Source: a virus (taxonomy: Duplodnaviria; Caudoviricetes). Taken from it: a stretch of 58,565 nucleotides of DNA. The stretch is taken from positions 1 to 58,565 of the IMG/VR virus record IMGVR_UViG_3300036861_000141; one strand, written 5' to 3'. Under the pieces are notes generated by a model. The model saw only the letters and a program-made list of their open reading frames with translations. It had not been told where the DNA came from and did not search any database. Each line of letters starts with the position of its first letter. Within the stretch, counting starts at the first letter, position 1. Shown here in pieces: positions 3,432 to 58,266 of the stretch. Both the position numbers and the translations under genes were made by a program.

Positions 3432-4166
3432 ATGATTCATTACCACGGCCTCCCGATCACCCCAGCGACCGCCGCTGAAGTGGCGATCCGGGCAGGCCAT
3501 GCCTTTGTGTCGTTCGCGCATCCGGGGCAACTCGGGTTAGCCGTGGCCGCGTGTCAGTCGCTCGCGATTGACTGTGCCGCGTATTCCGCGTGGCGTAGCG
3601 GGAAGCCCGTTGAGGACTGGACGCCGTATTACACCTTTGCTGCCTCCGCGAAGAAGTTACCCATGTGCGATTTTGCCGTCGTGCCGGATGTGATCGACGG
3701 CACGGAAGCCGAGAACGATTCGCTCGTGGCGGAATGGCCGTTGCCGCGTTGGTTCGGTGCTCCGGTGTGGCATCTTCACGAATCGCTCGGACGATTGGAA
3801 CGGCTGGCTTCAGAGTGGCCGCGCGTCTGCCTTGGCAGCTCCGGCGATTACGCGCAGATCGGGACGCCACGATGGTGGCAGCGGATGGGGCACGCGATGC
3901 GCGTTGTGTGCGATGACGCCGGACAGCCGATCTGTCGCCTGCATGGCCTGCGAATGCTTGACCCTGGCATCTTCTCGCGGTTCCCGTTTGCGTCCGCCGA
4001 CAGCGTGAACATCGGCCGGAACATCGGGATCGATCAGGCGTGGCGCGGACCATACGCCCCACCGACGAAGGAAAGCCGGACGCAACTCATGCGTTCGCGC
4101 GTCGAGAGCGTCAACGCGCCGAGCGCGTACGACTTCAGTCACCAGCAATCGGAGTTCGCACTGTAA
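3432..4166 (+). CDS. TGT/DpdA-like (tRNA-guanine transglycosylase fold) protein
   Basis: Motifs IDCAAYS (DxGAFS-like), VPDVI, PVWH, CLGS, LHGL and SADS occur in the order seen in TGT/DpdA-like TIM barrels. Confidence 0.6.
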   Translation: MIHYHGLPITPATAAEVAIRAGHAFVSFAHPGQLGLAVAACQSLAIDCAAYSAWRSGKPVEDWTPYYTFAASAKKLPMCDFAVVPDVIDGTEAENDSLVAEWPLPRWFGAPVWHLHESLGRLERLASEWPRVCLGSSGDYAQIGTPRWWQRMGHAMRVVCDDAGQPICRLHGLRMLDPGIFSRFPFASADSVNIGRNIGIDQAWRGPYAPPTKESRTQLMRSRVESVNAPSAYDFSHQQSEFAL

Positions 4167-4417
4167 TGGCGATTGAGAATCGCGGCTTTGCGTCGGTGGA
4201 TACCGAGACGATGCGACGGATCGCCAGCGAGGGCGGTAAGGCCGCACACCATTACGGCACCGCGCGGAAGTGGACATTAGAAGAGGCGCGGGAAGCAGGC
4301 CGACTTGGCAAGCGCGCGTCGGATGAAGCGAAGCGTCGAAAGAAAGCGGCGAACGCGGAAGCGAGCATCAGAAACGAAGCGGTGACTACCAGCAACCAAG
4401 GGGAGCTAGATGAGTGA
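4166..4417 (+). CDS. KGG-motif general stress protein-like
   Basis: RGFASVD.E.MRRIASEGGKAAH...EEAREAGRLG; ATG overlaps the upstream TAA. Confidence 0.75.
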   Translation: MAIENRGFASVDTETMRRIASEGGKAAHHYGTARKWTLEEAREAGRLGKRASDEAKRRKKAANAEASIRNEAVTTSNQGELDE

Positions 4418-29791: not shown

Positions 29792-30085
29792 GTGGTTATC
29801 AACCTCCGTCGCTATCGCCGGAAGCGAGCAGACGCCACTGGCCGAGTGTGGTCTGTTGGCAGCTACCGACGAGACAGGGTTGGGGCGCGACGGTACCGCT
29901 GTTTTCTTAACGGTGTTGACGTGACCGATCACACGTTCTATGTGGATTCTCGACGCGGCGTCGTGCGGATGTTTAAGGTCAACGCAGAAGGCCACCATTA
30001 CGTTGATCCCAGAACCGACTATGAGGCTGCGTGGGAAGAACGTCGAGGCAAGGTCAAGTTGATTCGCAAACGTGAGGCGGCGTGA
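29792..30085 (+). CDS. Basic hypothetical protein
   Basis: Closely packed ORF inside the glycosyltransferase cassette. Confidence 0.45.
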   Translation: MVINLRRYRRKRADATGRVWSVGSYRRDRVGARRYRCFLNGVDVTDHTFYVDSRRGVVRMFKVNAEGHHYVDPRTDYEAAWEERRGKVKLIRKREAA

Positions 30086-30879
30086 TCGTGGGCTTTGGTG
30101 ATGAATTGGTAGCGGCTGGACAAGCACAAAGACTCTTTGAGGAGTTTGGCCAACGTGTGCTCATTCTCGACACGAATCATCGGCCGCGGTGGCATGCGAT
30201 ATGGGAAGGCAATCCGGTGATTGTCAATCCGATGGATCAGTTAGACGGCCAGGCCTATCAGCGGTTAGTGAGTGCGCCAAATGCACGGCCCTACATCGTG
30301 TATCCGTTTACGCAGGAGACAGGCTGGACGTTTAACAAAGCGTTCCACTGCAGAGACTACAAGGCGCGGCTGTATCTCACGGAAGAGGAATTGTCGAAGG
30401 GCCGCGAGGCACGCGAGCGATACGGACCGTACGTCCTGATCGAGCCGTTTACGAAGCACGAGAACTTCCGGTGGCCGATTGAGCGGTGGTCTACGCTGGT
30501 CAGCTCCTGTAAAGAGCTGACATTTGTGCAGCACACCCATCTGGAATCTGAGTTTGTCGATGGGGCGAGTTTGGAGTCAGCGACATTCCGTGAGGCCTGC
30601 GGACTCATCGCGAGTGCCAGTGCTTATGTGCGGTCAGAGAGCGGGCTGTGCCATGCCGCGGCGGCGATTGGAATCCCGCAAGTCACGTTGTTTGGCGGGT
30701 GCATGGACGCCGAGGTTATGGGCGGCTACGACAAGCAGATCTGCATCGTGGATGAGGATGCGCTGACGCCGTGTGGGCGCTGGCATCGGTGTGAACACTG
30801 CCTGAAGGCGATGGATCGGATCACTGTGAGCCAGGTGCGTGACGCGCTGTATCAGGCGCTGGGCGAGACGGTGCATTGA
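30082..30879 (+). CDS. GT9 (heptosyltransferase-like) glycosyltransferase
   Basis: GFGDEL...RWP.ERW...TFREACGLI..A..YV.SESGLCHAAAAIGIP.VTLFG. Confidence 0.85.
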   Translation: MIVGFGDELVAAGQAQRLFEEFGQRVLILDTNHRPRWHAIWEGNPVIVNPMDQLDGQAYQRLVSAPNARPYIVYPFTQETGWTFNKAFHCRDYKARLYLTEEELSKGREARERYGPYVLIEPFTKHENFRWPIERWSTLVSSCKELTFVQHTHLESEFVDGASLESATFREACGLIASASAYVRSESGLCHAAAAIGIPQVTLFGGCMDAEVMGGYDKQICIVDEDALTPCGRWHRCEHCLKAMDRITVSQVRDALYQALGETVH

Positions 30880-31394
30880 TGACGCTTATCAGCTTAGCCC
30901 AGGCGAAGCAGCACCTCAGAGTCACCTCCGACGATGAGAATGCGGACATCTGGAGCAAGGCCCAATTAGCCAGCGACATCATCGTGGCCTATCTCAAGGG
31001 GCGTCCAATTGCCGTCTCGACGCTGACGAATAGCGGAGGCCTGGCTACGGTGACTGCGGCCACGGTTCACGGCTTGACGACTGGTGACACGGTGTTCATC
31101 CGAGGGGCGGTGCAGCCGGAATACAACGGTGAAGTAGTGGTGACAGTGACGGGTACCAATACCTTCACGTATCCGATTGCTGGGACGCCTGTTACGGCCA
31201 CTGGCATCATGTGGATTCGAGCGGCAGCGACGTGGACCGAGACGACGGTGCCGTCCAATGTCAAAGCTGCGATTCTGGTTATGCTCACGCATTACTACGA
31301 GCACCGCGGCGATGACATGGATAAGTACGACGAGTCCGCGTGGCAGGCCGTTCGGAACCTGCTCGTTGGATTCAGGGATCCGGCGTTGGCGTGA
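30876..31394 (+). CDS. Head-tail connector (gp6-like) with an inserted small beta-barrel domain
   Basis: LISL.QAKQHLRV..DDE...VP.NVKAAIL.ML.HYYEHR; insert HGLTTGDTVFI.GA...YNG...VTV...NTFTY. Confidence 0.88.
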   Translation: MMTLISLAQAKQHLRVTSDDENADIWSKAQLASDIIVAYLKGRPIAVSTLTNSGGLATVTAATVHGLTTGDTVFIRGAVQPEYNGEVVVTVTGTNTFTYPIAGTPVTATGIMWIRAAATWTETTVPSNVKAAILVMLTHYYEHRGDDMDKYDESAWQAVRNLLVGFRDPALA

Positions 31395-31750
31395 TGGCAA
31401 CGCGAGGGCAGAAACGGCACCGGCTGACACTGGAGAATCCCGGCGCGAAGGTGCCGGATGGGGATGGGGGATTTACGCAGACGTGGGCAGCACTCTCACC
31501 GCCGATGGTCTATGCAGAGATTAAGCCAGCGACGGCGCGAGACCTCGAGCGGGTCGTGTCGAACGTCGTGCAGTCCACGGCGAGTCATATCGTGACGTGC
31601 GATTACCACAGTGGGATCACGTCCCAGACGCGGGTGAGTTGGACCGGGCCGAGAGATGGCCGGGCGCATGTGGGTGTGGTGACAGGCGTGCAAGATCCAG
31701 AGGAGCGCAACGTTGAATTAGTGCTGGCAGTGGAAGAGGTTGTTACATGA
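31394..31750 (+). CDS. Head closure / head-tail adaptor
   Basis: G.KRHRLTLE....DGDGG..QTW......YAEIKP; synteny. Confidence 0.85.
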   Translation: MATRGQKRHRLTLENPGAKVPDGDGGFTQTWAALSPPMVYAEIKPATARDLERVVSNVVQSTASHIVTCDYHSGITSQTRVSWTGPRDGRAHVGVVTGVQDPEERNVELVLAVEEVVT

Positions 31751-31752
31751 AG

Positions 31753-32352
31753 TTAACCGACATGTTTCCAAATCTTTCCAGAGAGCACGTTGGCAACTGT
31801 CGTGCGGCTAACGTTGAAGTTGCGTCCGATCTTGGTCTTGGTGAGTCCGGCCATGGAAAGGGCGCGTATTTGCGTGACGTCGCGTTCACTGAGTTTGTGG
31901 TTGTGGTGCTCCACGCCTCTCTTAATGCTCTCCGGGTGCTTGTGTGTCCCGTGATTAGAGCCACGGATAGAGCGGCCTTTGTGAACCATGTCGCGGGAAT
32001 TGTCCGCATGGGTTCCGAGAAACAAATGATCAGGCCGAACACATCGGCGGTTGTCGCACTTGTGGGCGACTATCAACCCATCTGGGATTGGCCCGTATGT
32101 CAATTCATAGGCAATGCGATGAGCACCATGCGGTCGTCGCCCTATCGAGTACTGACCATACCCGTTGGAGAACGGACCAGCCGCCCATATCCAGCACGTA
32201 TCCGTTTGTCTGACTTTGCTCCAGAACCTATTTGGCGATTCGCTCCTGGCTTTGTTGTGGCATTTATGCGAGCAGTAGCGGCGCTTAGTGCCCTTGTTAG
32301 GTCGTATCTGTCCGCAATATGCACAAGTCCTGACAAGCGGTTTTATTGGCAT
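31753..32352 (-). CDS. HNH homing endonuclease with C-terminal HTH, inserted antisense
   Basis: RFWSKV...CWIW......GYG...AHRIAYEL..GPIP.GL.V.HKCDNRRCVRPDHLFLGT..DN..DM..KGR. Confidence 0.92.
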   Translation of the reverse strand: MPIKPLVRTCAYCGQIRPNKGTKRRYCSHKCHNKARSESPNRFWSKVRQTDTCWIWAAGPFSNGYGQYSIGRRPHGAHRIAYELTYGPIPDGLIVAHKCDNRRCVRPDHLFLGTHADNSRDMVHKGRSIRGSNHGTHKHPESIKRGVEHHNHKLSERDVTQIRALSMAGLTKTKIGRNFNVSRTTVANVLSGKIWKHVG

Positions 32353-32405
32353 AACTACGCACATTGTAGCACTACTGTGCTGGCTGTTGAGGATGTCGTC
32401 AGCTA

Positions 32406-32822
32406 ATGGCTGGTGGCGTGCGCCTGGAGGGCATGGCTGAACTCATACGCGAGTTGACGAACGCGCCCAAAGACATTCGTGAGGGCGGGTTGGCCATCGT
32501 GCGTGAAGAAGTGGAAGGCGCAGCGGAGGAGATGAGGAATGCGTACCCGGGTGGCTTAAAGCGCACCGTCAAGGTGGACTTCCCGAGTAGCACGTTGCTT
32601 ATCGGCACTGTCAAGAACACGTCACCGCATAGCCATCTGTACGAGTTCGGCACGCAACAACGGCAGACGGCGAGTGGCGCGAGTCGCGGTGTCATGCACG
32701 GTCGGACTGGCGGCGGCGGAAGGCCAATCACCGTTCCGATAGCGAAACGACGGCGGCGACAGATGTTCGAGCGGCTGAAGCAGATGTTGAAGGACAAGGG
32801 CTTTGAGGTGACTGGTGGCTGA
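32406..32822 (+). CDS. HK97 gp10-like neck protein
   Basis: V.LEGM.EL...L...PHSHLYEFGT. Confidence 0.8.
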   Translation: MAGGVRLEGMAELIRELTNAPKDIREGGLAIVREEVEGAAEEMRNAYPGGLKRTVKVDFPSSTLLIGTVKNTSPHSHLYEFGTQQRQTASGASRGVMHGRTGGGGRPITVPIAKRRRRQMFERLKQMLKDKGFEVTGG

Positions 32823-33246
32823 CTCTTCCGCCATCTATGCGGCGCTGTCAGCCAAGTTGACAACTGACGTCACTCTGATGGCGTTGACGACTGATGGTGC
32901 GTATCGGGACATCGCTCCTGCTGGCACTACGAAAGTCATCATCATATCGAAACAGGCCGATAGCCGAGTCTACGTGCAGGATCGGCAAATGGCCTATGAG
33001 GCCTTCAGCTATTTGGTTAAGGCCGTTGTGAAGGCGACAAGTGGCACAGTGGCGAGTCAGGCAGCATCACGGATTCGTGCGCTCTTGCACAACGCTCAAT
33101 TAGTTGTCGCTGGCTACGGGTTGATGAGTTGCCATCTGTCTGAGGATGAAGGCGCGATTGAATACCAAGAATCGGATCCCGATGACACCGATGCACGGTG
33201 GCAGCATCGCGGATGGATCTTCGATGTGATAGTGAGTCCAGTGTAA
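32815..33246 (+). CDS. Tail terminator / completion protein
   Basis: AIYAAL.AKL..D..L..L...RIRALLH; synteny. Confidence 0.7.
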   Translation: MADSSAIYAALSAKLTTDVTLMALTTDGAYRDIAPAGTTKVIIISKQADSRVYVQDRQMAYEAFSYLVKAVVKATSGTVASQAASRIRALLHNAQLVVAGYGLMSCHLSEDEGAIEYQESDPDDTDARWQHRGWIFDVIVSPV

Positions 33247-34923: not shown

Positions 34924-37900
34924 ATGGTCTCCGCGACATTCGCCGCTGATTTCACTCGATTTAACGACGCCGTGCAAAAGGCAGAAGTACGTCTTAAAGA
35001 CTTCTCGTCTGGGATCGTGCGCGTAGATAAGGACTTGGCCAAGTTCGGGAACCAGTTCTCCGGCACCAAGCTGATTCAGGACGCCACGTTGATGGCGAAG
35101 GCCATAGAAGGCATCGGAGGCGTATCCAAACTCACGGCAGCAGAGCAACTGCGCGTCAACAGTGCTGTTGTTGATGCGATAGCCAAGTACAAGGCACTCG
35201 GTCAGCAGGCTCCTGCGTCATTGCTTGAACTTGAGGCCGCTACTCGCAAGGTCTTGACTGGGACAGACAAGATGGCGGCCGGAATGGCTGCGATGGGAGT
35301 CGCTGGCAAAAAGGCGTTTGAGGAACTTCAGGCATCGGACAAACTCGTCGCAGGCATGAGTGCGGCTGGTGGTGAGGCGAAGAAACTGGCCGACAACATC
35401 ACGCCGATCCCCGAAAAGTTATCGCTATCAGGGAAAGCCGCGAACCTGGCCAAGACATCATTTGCGCAGATGTTCGGTGCATTCACTGCTGCCAATCTGG
35501 TCACAAGCGCTGTGACTGGTCTTGTTAATTTAGGCAAGGAGGCATTTGCGAGCGCGAGCCGGACGGCAGATCTGAGCGCGAAGTTGGGGATTGGCACTGA
35601 AGCGATTCAGCGGATGGAGTTTGTCGCCAAGCAGACGGGCGGCACGGTGGAACAGTTTGCGTCGGCGGCGTTCAAGCTCGGCGTGAGGCTGTCTGGGAAC
35701 AGCGATAGCGTCGAGCACGCCGTGGGCGCACTCGGGCTGAAGTTTGAGGAGCTGAAGCGCGCAAAACCGGAACAGCAATTCGAGCAAGTCGTGGGCGCGC
35801 TCGGGAAAATGCAGGACGCCACGAAGCGGAATGAACTTGGCGTGTTGTTGTTCGGGAAATCCTTTGAGTCCATCGCGGCTGGTGTGGCAGCGAATTACGA
35901 CAAGGTGGCTGGTCGGGCCGCTATCACTAGCGATAGACAGATCCAGGCCCTAGACCGGGCTGGTGACGCGTGGGACCGATTCAAAGATCGGCAACACAAG
36001 AATGTGCGCGGCATCCTTGGAAATCTCACTGAACTAGTAGAGCGGCGCGGGGCGTTGATGGGGTTCATCGATCTCGTGAGCCCATTCGGGCCAGGCCTGT
36101 CTGAGTCGGCGCGGCTGAGGCAGGGCACTGAAGATGCGAAACCCAAGTCTCAGTCCACCAATACCACCGCTGGTGGCACGGTGGCGCAGGCCGACTTCGT
36201 GGCCCAGCTCCAGAAGGCCGAAGCCGCGATGAAGGCGCTGACAAAAGAGCAGCGCGACCAAATCGACGCGGCCCAAAAGCTCGGCGGGGATGCGCTGGAG
36301 CAGCTGATCGATAAGTACGGACTCTCAGAAGAAGCCGTACGGCTTTATACCGGAGAAGTCAAAACTGCGACGAAGGCTCAGAGCGATTTTGCCAAAACGG
36401 CCGATGTGTTATTCGGCCGTGACGTCATCGCACGGGCCAATGACTATGCCAAGGCGATTGGCAGCGTGTCGAACGTCTCGCGCCTGTCCAAAGACAAACA
36501 GGTCGAAGTCAATCGCACTGTTGTCGAAGCCATCGAAACGTATCAGCGGCTTGGCCAGACAGCGCCCAAGTCGCTCCGCGATCTCGCAGATGCCACGTTC
36601 AAGGTCAATGTCCGCACGGTGGATTTCGGCCTCGCCATGCGCGCATTGCCACCGAGCATTACCAGCGCGAACACCTCAGAGGCAGAGTGGATTGGCTGGT
36701 TACAGAAGTCGCGAGACATCACCCAACACGCCACGCTGGAACTAAATAAGTATGAAAACGCGCTGTATCGGTTGCCTGGCGCCATTAGTAATCAGCGCAT
36801 CTCAGAGTCAGTGACGAAGACGAAGGGCTATCTCCAGTCGTTGGCCGACTCGATGACATCGCTCTGGGACGGTATCTCTGGAGGCAAGGGCGCCTCTGGT
36901 GTGTTTGAGAACCTTGGGGCTGGGATTATTGAAGGCTTCGGCCATCTCGTATCTGGCGGTATCACATCACTCATAAATAAGGGCATTGAGCTGGCGTGGG
37001 CAGGGCTGAAGAAACTCGGCGGACTCATTAAGGGCTTATTCGGTGGTCCGTCTCAGAAAGAGCTTGAGGGCCGGGCCGTTGTCAAGCAGTTTGAGGATCA
37101 ACTCATTGCCAGCCTGACGGCCACGCAACTGCTCACCGCTGGTACAGAGCGATGGGAAAAGGTTGTTCTGGCCGTGCAGGATGCCTATCTCGCCACTGGC
37201 CGATCGGCGGAAGACGCTGGCCGTGATGTCAAGGCGCTCTGGGATTCCTCCAAGAAGGGCGCTGAGGCCGCAAAGGCCGCGGCCGAACAAATTAATGCGG
37301 TCCTCGAGGAACAGCACGCCGATCAGGAACGTTTGACCGCGGCGATTCAGAAGTACGGCTTCACCATCGAACAACTCGGGCCGGCCTTCCGCAGCCAGCA
37401 ACTGAATGAACAGGCGAAAGACCTGATCGAAGACTGGCGCGTACTGGTCAACTCCGGCATAAACCTGACGCTCGTCAACGAGAAGATGGCCGAGTCGATC
37501 AACACCTACCTCACGACGGCGATCAAGACCGGCACGGAGGTGCCGAACGCGTTCAAGCCGATCCTGCAAACGTTGATCGATCAGGGATTACTCCTTGATG
37601 AGAACGGAACCGCCATCACCGATTTAGGCAAGTCTGGTGTGACCTTCGCGGAGACGATGACGCAAGGGTTTGATCGCGTGGTGCTGAAACTAGAAGAACT
37701 GATTAAGAAACTCCAAGGCACTGGAACGGCGATCGACAACATCCCAGGGATCAACATCCCTGTCACGATTCCAGATTTTGAAACAGCGCTTCGCGAGCGT
37801 CTGTCAAAAGTCAGTTTATGGGATCGGATTACCGGTAATGCCGGTGCCATTCCAATGGCTGGTGGTGGGTCTGGCACGGTCACGAGTCCCACGCTGTTCA

Positions 37901-57514: not shown

Positions 57515-57934
57515 ATGTCACTCGTTCGCTGGACCGAGCCTCACTTCAAGAGCGATCTCACTCCCGTGAAGGTGGAGCGGCACGATCGCCGGAAGGCACG
57601 GCAGGAGGCGCTGGACGCCGCGTACAGGGCCGTCGAGATCCGCGACAAGGGTATCTGCTGGGTGACAGGACGGCACCTCACAGCGGGCGCTATCGACCCG
57701 GCGAATCGGCGCGAGCATCACCATCTGGTGAAGCGCAGCCAGAGCAAAGCACTGCGGGAGCGGCCGATGAACATCATCCTCGTCTCAGCCTTGGCGCATG
57801 ACTTGATCGAGCGCGGCTGGATCCTGATCGAAGGAAAGCGAGCGGATCGTCCGATCTTTTTCCACTGGCACCCTGACGCGAAGTCTCGGCCGCTTGTGAT
57901 TCGTCGGCGGAACCTGCACGCGGAGACCAAGTGA
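57515..57934 (+). CDS. HNH-like nuclease
   Basis: RDKGICWVTG...EHHHLVKRS...NIILVS..AH. Confidence 0.65.
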   Translation: MSLVRWTEPHFKSDLTPVKVERHDRRKARQEALDAAYRAVEIRDKGICWVTGRHLTAGAIDPANRREHHHLVKRSQSKALRERPMNIILVSALAHDLIERGWILIEGKRADRPIFFHWHPDAKSRPLVIRRRNLHAETK

Positions 57935-58266
57935 AAGTCGTTTACATCGCTGGTCCGTTTCGTGGCCCTAACGCGTGGGAGATCGAGCAGAACATCCGCC
58001 GAGCAGAGGCGCTGTCGCTGGAAGTGTGGCGCATGGGAGCGGCGGCACTCTGCCCGCACACCAACACGCGATTCTTCCAAGGCGCGGCCGACGATTCGGT
58101 GTGGCTGGACGGCGATCTGGAGTTGCTGGCTCGGTGTGACGCCATGTTGATGACGCCTGACTGGGAGCGCAGTACTGGCGCGAAGGCTGAGCGGGAGTGG
58201 GCATCCGTTCACGACATGCCGATCTTTATGGACATCAACGACCTGCGGGAGTGGTTGGCGAAGTGA
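57931..58266 (+). CDS. Nucleoside 2-deoxyribosyltransferase-like (DUF4406-type) protein
   Basis: VYIAGPF...CPH...LARCDAM...W..S.GA..E..WA. Confidence 0.75.
   Translation: MKVVYIAGPFRGPNAWEIEQNIRRAEALSLEVWRMGAAALCPHTNTRFFQGAADDSVWLDGDLELLARCDAMLMTPDWERSTGAKAEREWASVHDMPIFMDINDLREWLAK

Follow-up and report, generated by a model that had tools for sequence, protein, structure and literature searches.

The window analysed here, the whole 58,565 bp of IMG/VR virus record IMGVR_UViG_3300036861_000141, is a complete viral record with terminal repeats and consists of tailed-phage DNA (Duplodnaviria; Caudoviricetes) with a GC content of 57% and many long antisense open reading frames (ORFs). In its head-tail connector operon a free-standing homing endonuclease gene (HEG) of the HNH_3 type lies antisense between the gene for the head-closure or head completion protein (HCP) and a gp10-like tail-completion gene (Table 1). 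On the sense strand a single ORF, called the bridging ORF below, remains open across the whole insertion and joins the upstream gene to the downstream one.

The HNH_3 domain of the encoded protein scores 66.5 bits against a cut-off of 24.8, and 14 PHROG HNH or nuclease families were matched. At the C-terminus (residues 155-194) there are HTH_38 and HTH_7 matches with E values of ~3e-4, which fall below the Pfam cut-offs. The 3' end of the HNH gene lies two bases beyond the head-closure stop, on the opposite strand. The bridging ORF begins at the ATG of ACATGA, overlapping the head-closure stop (ATGA, 31747-31750), with AGAGG 7 nt before it inside copy 1, and ends in TAATG (32404-32408), where its stop overlaps the gp10-like start. 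Both ends therefore show the stop/start overlap that marks a translationally coupled cistron, and the overlaps are of the same types as those between true gene pairs of this operon and its relatives. A sequence-only reading of the window had reported this 219-codon ORF with its two overlaps, as well as a minus-strand HNH gene flanked by two copies of the head-closure gene end (VLAVEEVVT and VLAVEDVVS, each followed by a stop); both descriptions, with their coordinates, were confirmed.

Table 1. Features of the connector operon around the HNH insertion, in window positions.
Feature	Position	Strand	Basis
Head-tail adaptor (Ad1) gene	30876..31394	+	phrog_40 E=2.4e-13, PF05135 E=3.4e-4
Head-closure / head completion gene (HCP, Hc1), 118 aa	31394..31750	+	PF05521 (Phage_HCP) E=6e-10, phrog_25 E=1.4e-6
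Copy 1, working HCP 3' end, VLAVEEVVT-stop	31721..31750	+	relatives end ...LVLACEEVVT-stop
Bridging ORF, 219 codons	31747..32406	+	codon-aligned mirror frame of HNH gene
Free-standing HNH_3 homing endonuclease gene, 203 aa	31753..32364	-	PF13392 E=1.6e-18, phrog_59 E=1.7e-31
Spacer, 12 nt, HNH start codon to copy 2	32365..32376	.	sequence
Copy 2, leftover recoded HCP end, VLAVEDVVS-stop	32377..32406	+	keeps GAGG + TAATG junction
gp10-like / Neck1 tail-completion gene	32406..32822	+	phrog_5 E=4.2e-13; homologues directly after HCP in relatives
gp17-like tail completion gene	32815..33246	+	PF11367 E=9.3e-5, below cut-off; tblastn to relatives

The codons of the bridging ORF are exactly complementary to those of the HNH gene, and a stop in this aligned mirror frame corresponds to a TTA, CTA or TCA codon in the endonuclease. 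The HNH gene contains nine leucine and 14 serine codons, and the bridging frame is open because none of these 23 is TTA, CTA or TCA; its three mirror frames in the window hold 0, 8 and 13 stops. The chance of such an open frame is ~0.025 from the codon usage of the window, and 152 of 5472 203-codon gene windows of this genome (2.8%) are equally open. It falls to ~0.003 when calculated from the third-position composition of the HNH gene itself, which has A in 18 of its 80 other four-fold codons.

One explanation is that the open frame is a chance shadow ORF of a moderately GC-rich gene and has no role, so that only the insertion and the duplicated gene end are real. The composition of the window and its many long antisense ORFs would suit this, as would the share of equally open gene windows and the two of 72 called window genes that have a fully open aligned mirror frame (the only ones besides the HNH gene, at 29792-30085 and 57931-58266, are short, with 97 and 111 codons). 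The bridging ORF also matches no Pfam or PHROG family, and its codon-model score is weak (4.4, compared with >15 in neighbouring genes). A chance frame, however, would have to coincide with both the ATGA start and the TAATG end.

A similar arrangement was found at L007, a relative of this operon, where a different HNH gene (42% identical) lies antisense at the next junction, between the gp10-like and gp17-like genes. It is spanned by a 210-codon aligned mirror ORF, whose start lies 10 nt ahead of the upstream stop and whose end lies 8 nt beyond the downstream ATG; this ORF prompted a survey of HNH_3 homologues. Set 1, seeded with the HNH genes of the window, L040 and L038, gave 142 distinct HNH ORFs; set 2, seeded with those of L049 and L007, added 48 new ones; and set 3, drawn from 401 bacterial genomes of one phylum, gave 21 matches over the Pfam cut-off. 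A search seeded with gp38 of Gordonia phage Vivi2 yielded no new loci. Among the 211 genes, 37 are antisense-embedded (both neighbours on the opposite strand) and 120 sense-oriented (both on the same strand), while 54 with mixed or uncalled neighbours were left out of the main comparison (in the mixed classes of sets 1 and 2, 3 of 28 are open). The flanking genes were assigned by a codon-frame model, trained on GC-matched long ORFs, which separates the true genes of the window from shadow ORFs; calling by ORF length or GC3 was abandoned for this model after misclassifying the window and L007. The null model used the third-position composition of each gene.

The aligned mirror frame is fully open in 14 of the 37 antisense-embedded genes, compared with 6 of the 120 sense-oriented ones (Fisher p=2.5e-6), where the null expects 0.67 and 3.23 open cases respectively. 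Since the sense expectation is near the observed count, the null is calibrated on sense genes, and the excess in the antisense-embedded class is ~20-fold over the composition null and ~8-fold over sense genes. It persists when the window and the four seed loci are removed (9/32 vs 6/120, p=5.8e-4) and among loci with a GC content of 0.50-0.67 only (11/27 vs 4/67, p=1.2e-4). The other two mirror frames are not depleted of stops, and this, together with the calibration of the third-position null (5 sense cases observed, 2.99 expected), led to the rejection of strand composition bias as an explanation. At >=60% identity, the open antisense genes of sets 1 and 2 form no cluster with any other gene; L144 and L188 (~35-39% identical) share a site between homologous tail genes, and both are open. 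The excess of stop-free aligned mirror frames in antisense-embedded genes is thus statistically strong and frame-specific. Depletion of stops in homologous antisense insertions had been put forward in the sequence-only reading as a test that could refute its idea, and the outcome of the survey favours the idea.

The frame also stays open outside the endonuclease genes. In the non-HNH spacer that leads to the next start in the open antisense loci, the bridge frame has no premature stop in any of 12 cases, compared with 9 of 24 in the two control frames (p=0.014). The bridge stop forms TAATG in the window and L144, ATGA in L038 and L181, and GTGA/TGATG in L188; it lies inside a Shine-Dalgarno sequence in L049 and L190, and 7 nt before the next start in L040. 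At the other end, at least 8 of the 13 open loci that were examined have the bridge start within ~10 nt of where the upstream gene stops. A bridge ORF that merely continues the host gene was rejected, as the upstream gene ends in a different frame in 10 of these 13 loci; in L178, L181 and L184 it ends in the frame of the bridge. At L040, L129, L136, L144 and L188 the upstream stop and the antisense HNH stop overlap tail-to-tail by 4 nt (TTAG, CTAG, TTAA), from which it follows that the inserted unit is hardly larger than the HNH ORF.

The same enrichment of the class would be seen if selection kept the frame open for a reason other than the delivery of ribosomes. Ribosome cover could shield the late mRNA from Rho, RNases or pairing with the antisense transcript of the endonuclease, or the frame could be a leftover of integration, with only in-frame joins to the leftover gene piece surviving. 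Direct coupling is unlikely in 3 of the 14 open cases, where a flanking gap exceeds 200 nt (L150, L184, L190), and at L007 and L135 the bridge stops several nt past the next start. Of the 13 open antisense cases that were examined, at least 5 show classical coupling overlaps, as do both cases in Vivi2; these overlaps, and the start site of lysin A in phage Rofo described below, speak against this explanation, and we consider it quite improbable.

The duplicated gene end indicates how the element may have arrived. The two 30-nt copies differ at nine positions, seven of them third and two second codon positions (hypergeometric p=0.0017), and seven of their nine residues are identical. Copy 2 is the sole peptide in the six frames of the window with at least 7/9 identities to VLAVEEVVT, and the sole plus-strand 30-mer with at least 20/30 identities; no peptide of its quality appeared in 20 shuffles of the window. 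Copy 2 is therefore beyond chance.

In a scan for flank duplicates at 134 loci, L040 alone rises clearly above the noise (score 90). The HNH gene at this locus shares 41% identity with that of the window and lies antisense right after a head-closure gene (phrog_25), the last 20 codons of which, ARIGARSYETVREVICREII, return behind the HNH gene as ARVGARSYETVRECICREVV, both followed by a stop and the second in the frame of the bridge ORF. These copies differ at 25 of 63 nt, and 17 of 21 codons specify the same residue or stop. Diverged duplicate termini that flank the element and differ mainly at synonymous sites are thus found in both the window and L040. At L146 the HNH gene also follows a head-closure homologue, without a duplicate and with 2 mirror stops. 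The L146 contig carries two antisense HNH genes, at 1668-2372 and 3449-4231, which flank connector genes and have 2 and 6 mirror stops. At L183 a sense HNH gene (2456-2968) is flanked by the similar peptides MSLFGDINLPGAPDL and VALFGGIKLPGAPAL (score 51, fifth of the 134 loci), which may represent a duplicated gene start around a sense insertion.

A search of the window region at the DNA level gave no match among sequenced phages, and HCP protein relatives in viral, metagenome and genome collections are at most 65% identical, so that there is no isogenic empty site for the window. The sequencing runs listed for this DNA include no RNA run; one run appears to be the source of the DNA, and a second contains a small share of it (two 151-nt identical contigs). 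None of the contigs joins across the HNH gene. In 20 relatives (L001-L020) the HCP stop overlaps or abuts the next start (TAATG, ATGA, GTGA) and the proteins mostly have LVLACEEVVT-like ends, and all 20 of these HCP-bearing viral loci lack an HNH gene at the HCP junction. Of the loci that have an HCP homologue, only the window, L007, L040 and L146 also contain an HNH ORF. The HNH gene of the window is thus sporadically present at a site that is empty in relatives, the nearest of which are 65% identical. In L008, L010, L012-L014 and L016 a gene for a small hydrophobic (membrane-like) protein follows head-closure, replacing the gp10-like gene. As the gene after HCP differs among relatives, homology of the DNA to the right of the junction does not extend across the group, which would favour one-sided homing.

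Closer comparisons are provided by Gordonia phages, of which examples with and without the insertion are in culture, on a common laboratory host. In Vivi2, a leftward HNH gene, gp43, lies between rightward minor-tail genes and the lysin A gene, and according to the Vivi2 genome announcement, HNH genes alone are leftward. An HNH gene of the gp43 type occurs in nine close relatives and is absent from at least nine (flanks 94-96% identical). Rofo and Vivi2, with the gene, were compared with Ailee and Angelicage, without it. The lysin A start of the empty site (ATG plus 8 codons, MSTIIDTAA) is kept unchanged upstream of the insertion, while a new ATG behind the HNH gene opens lysin A. The first 105 nt from this ATG show 33 differences from the empty allele, 24 of them at third positions, with 27 of 35 residues kept; the next 735 nt show only 7 differences. 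The retained start and the diverged tract indicate that in Rofo and Vivi2 the leftover piece is resident and the working piece imported. The tract beside the HNH gene of Rofo, set against Ailee, also lends indirect support, from another phage, to the idea that such an enzyme may cleave the empty allele site-specifically and cause gene conversion. The comparison with HNH-free relatives that had been called for could thus be made in Gordonia, while the relatives of the window itself, at most 65% identical, are too distant. That the element supplied a new gene end in the window is accordingly supported by analogy only.

In Rofo the bridge ORF (L267:943..1596, record positions 36135..36788; 217 codons) takes over the start codon of the resident lysin A, complete with GGAG, and its stop forms an ATGA overlap with the start of the relocated lysin A. 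This relocated start has no evident Shine-Dalgarno sequence of its own, and the bridge uses the native one. Between Rofo (L267) and Vivi2 (L262), 132 nt (44 codons) of the cassette are missing in Vivi2 and both frames are intact. The missing codons encode a Cys/His-rich N-terminal extension of the Rofo HNH protein, the gene for which is probably annotated too short. For gp38, the other leftward HNH gene of Vivi2, the bridge begins 6 nt past the gp37 stop and runs up to gp39, which it overlaps in TGATG. Mirror stops are absent from both leftward HNH genes of Vivi2 and number 1 and 3 in its two rightward ones. The lysin A start annotated for Vivi2 (37477; L262 / NC_031239.1 37402-37477) is probably 75 nt too far downstream, as translation from the in-frame ATG at 37402 yields MTTVIDTAGGFPSPEAIKAAG..., in agreement with the annotated start of Rofo and the N-terminus of the HNH-free relatives.

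Taken as a whole, these results point, with fair probability, to an HNH_3 gene that inserted antisense into the connector operon and whose stop-free sense frame keeps ribosomes coupled to the next gene. A free-standing HNH_3 gene would have invaded a tightly coupled operon, antisense, at the 3' end of the head-closure gene, by homologous joining on one side and non-homologous joining on the other. Such one-sided joining would leave HCP ending in copy 1, with copy 2 left behind the HNH gene. By analogy with Rofo, copy 1 would be derived from the donor and copy 2 would be the resident end in the window, and the diverged gene end would protect against cleavage by the enzyme. Ribosomes finishing head-closure would restart at the ATG at 31747, in the ATGA overlap downstream of AGAGG, translate 219 codons into a presumably functionless product and, after terminating at TAATG, begin again at the gp10-like gene. 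The GAGG sequence lies 13 nt before the gp10-like ATG, the same distance as in the HNH-free relative L001, which fits a start that in its native state relies on termination at TAATG. We infer that the bridge ORF is translated and that polarity is thereby relieved: the late mRNA would stay covered by ribosomes, avoiding Rho-type polarity or decay, and the native termination-reinitiation would be kept without splicing. An open frame would be free of cost to the endonuclease because TTA, CTA and TCA all have synonyms, and the aligned frame would be the obvious one to use, since no other reverse frame can be cleared of all its stops by synonymous changes.

Whether this extends beyond the window, so that antisense HEGs in phage operons generally carry a translated mirror-frame spacer cistron that passes ribosomes downstream, is in our estimate about evenly balanced. 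Such a spacer cistron would be supplied with ribosomes by the upstream stop or by the interrupted gene's displaced start site.

Several points weigh against a coupling role. In 23 of the 37 antisense-embedded genes there are 1-14 mirror stops, so that an open frame is not required, and genes that are tightly embedded yet closed occur at L037, L124, L146, L153, L162, L187, L206 and L221. Sets 2 and 3, both small and free of the original seeds, have 0/2 and 1/3 open respectively. Tight embedding (both gaps <=130 nt) is accompanied by an open frame in 11 of 22 cases and loose embedding in 3 of 15, which is a trend only (p=0.065). The flanking strands come from our own codon model applied to flanks of 1.5-3 kb, and the class of L007 and the left gap of the window were corrected by hand from homology. 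The conserved C-terminal His codon of the HNH proteins (CAT/CAC) reads as ATG/GTG on the other strand, so that bridge start codons are partly free. The 9-residue duplicate of the window scores 32 in the 134-locus scan, where the median is 30, and its significance therefore rests on its position and its uniqueness within the window. Taken in the window alone, the open frame is unlikely by chance, yet possible (~0.003-0.03).

The closed antisense genes also show that phages tolerate a closed frame, as a chance shadow ORF in the window would imply. Set against this are the ~20-fold and 8-fold excess in the class, its restriction to one frame and the spacers, which are open too, and a chance origin appears unlikely to us.

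The start codon of the bridging ORF, with AGAGG 7 nt upstream and a place within the operon, could alternatively belong to an overprinted gene with a functional protein, and long antisense overlapping genes have been proposed in bacteria. The lack of any Pfam or PHROG family and a sequence dictated by the HNH gene speak against such a protein; from locus to locus, the HNH genes mirrored by the bridge ORFs share <60% identity, and Vivi2 lost 44 bridge codons with the frame still open. An overprinted gene is accordingly very improbable.

The proposed ribosome coupling through the mirror frame can be compared with several known systems. Like free-standing phage HEGs (T4 seg and mob; I-HmuI-like HNH genes), the element has an HNH_3 domain and, from the sub-threshold helix-turn-helix matches, possibly a DNA-binding tail. 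It is likewise present in some related genomes only and placed where one gene borders on another, and in the Gordonia phages a diverged tract with sharp limits lies beside the HNH gene. The arrangement would therefore be that of a free-standing homing endonuclease with a new accommodation device, the mechanistic core of which would be the coupling described above. Passages of a review of T4 endonucleases point out that an endonuclease gene, on invasion, has to keep its effect on adjacent genes small, name segD as an antisense gene and describe coupling overlaps for sense-oriented endonuclease genes; they contain neither a stop-free sense frame across an antisense endonuclease nor the use of such a frame for coupling. 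In the full-text literature, with subscription journals and supplements outside reach, no account was found of a sense-strand frame that stays free of stops across antisense endonuclease genes, and the main-text passages of a Xanthomonas phage paper and an ICP1 nuclease paper contain nothing on orientation or mirror frames.

The nearest parallel for the frame itself is found in ambigrammatic narnaviruses, which have a long stop-free aligned reverse ORF that arises by avoidance of UUA, CUA and UCA and has a product without recognisable function. A narnavirus paper shows that synonymous changes can clear every stop from the aligned reverse frame and from no other. The HNH gene of the window likewise has an aligned reverse ORF over the whole gene, a feature that in its class occurs beyond chance. 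It does not belong to a Narnaviridae RNA genome: narnaviruses have their whole RNA genome mirrored, whereas here one selfish gene of a DNA phage is mirrored, with the mirror ORF on the sense strand of the operon and joined to neighbouring cistrons by stop/start overlaps. These overlaps (ATGA, TAATG) are the ones seen in the translational coupling of operons, unlike which the middle cistron here is apparently without protein function.

For the duplicated gene end, the parallel lies with mobile elements of organelles. Partial replacement of a gene by a foreign one with terminal duplication is mentioned, for a Tremella case, in a review of organellar introns. As with endonuclease elements of fungal mitochondria, a diverged copy of the terminus of the interrupted gene would here be brought in and the resident piece left over. 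Unlike the present element, the fungal ones are usually sense-oriented or within introns and lack a bridging mirror frame. The Allomyces atp6 hybrid gene is reportedly a further case of terminal gene replacement by a mobile endonuclease element.

In T4, the bypass element of gene 60, associated with mobA, is a cassette device that makes an insertion harmless to host gene expression, by ribosome hopping over 50 nt within one gene. What is proposed here differs from it in being plain translation of a 219-codon spacer ORF between two genes. If true, the bridge would join introns, inteins and ribosomal bypass as a fourth means by which a selfish endonuclease gene renders its insertion harmless, and would explain how such a gene can lie antisense within an essential operon that depends on translational coupling and yet incur no fitness cost. 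It would also be an actual example of selection acting on the translation of an ORF and not on its product, in which case the long 'shadow' ORFs that lie opposite endonuclease genes in phages deserve care, lest they be dismissed or mis-annotated.

The neighbouring true genes of the operon are joined by overlaps as well. The Ad1 stop overlaps the head-closure start in TGATG, and the gp10-like and gp17-like genes overlap by 8 nt. A scan of the window for promoters and terminators gave no count above the shuffle expectation. One promoter-like site, itself of a kind whose count is not above that expectation, was noted on the minus strand at 32363-32390 (TCAACA, 16 nt, TG-TACAAT; 9/12 matches). It lies inside copy 2, with its end on the start codon of the HNH gene, and would favour use of the second ATG (Met5) of that gene. 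In L001-L006, 1.7-2 kb separate the gp17-like and major tail protein genes, compared with ~190 nt in the window.

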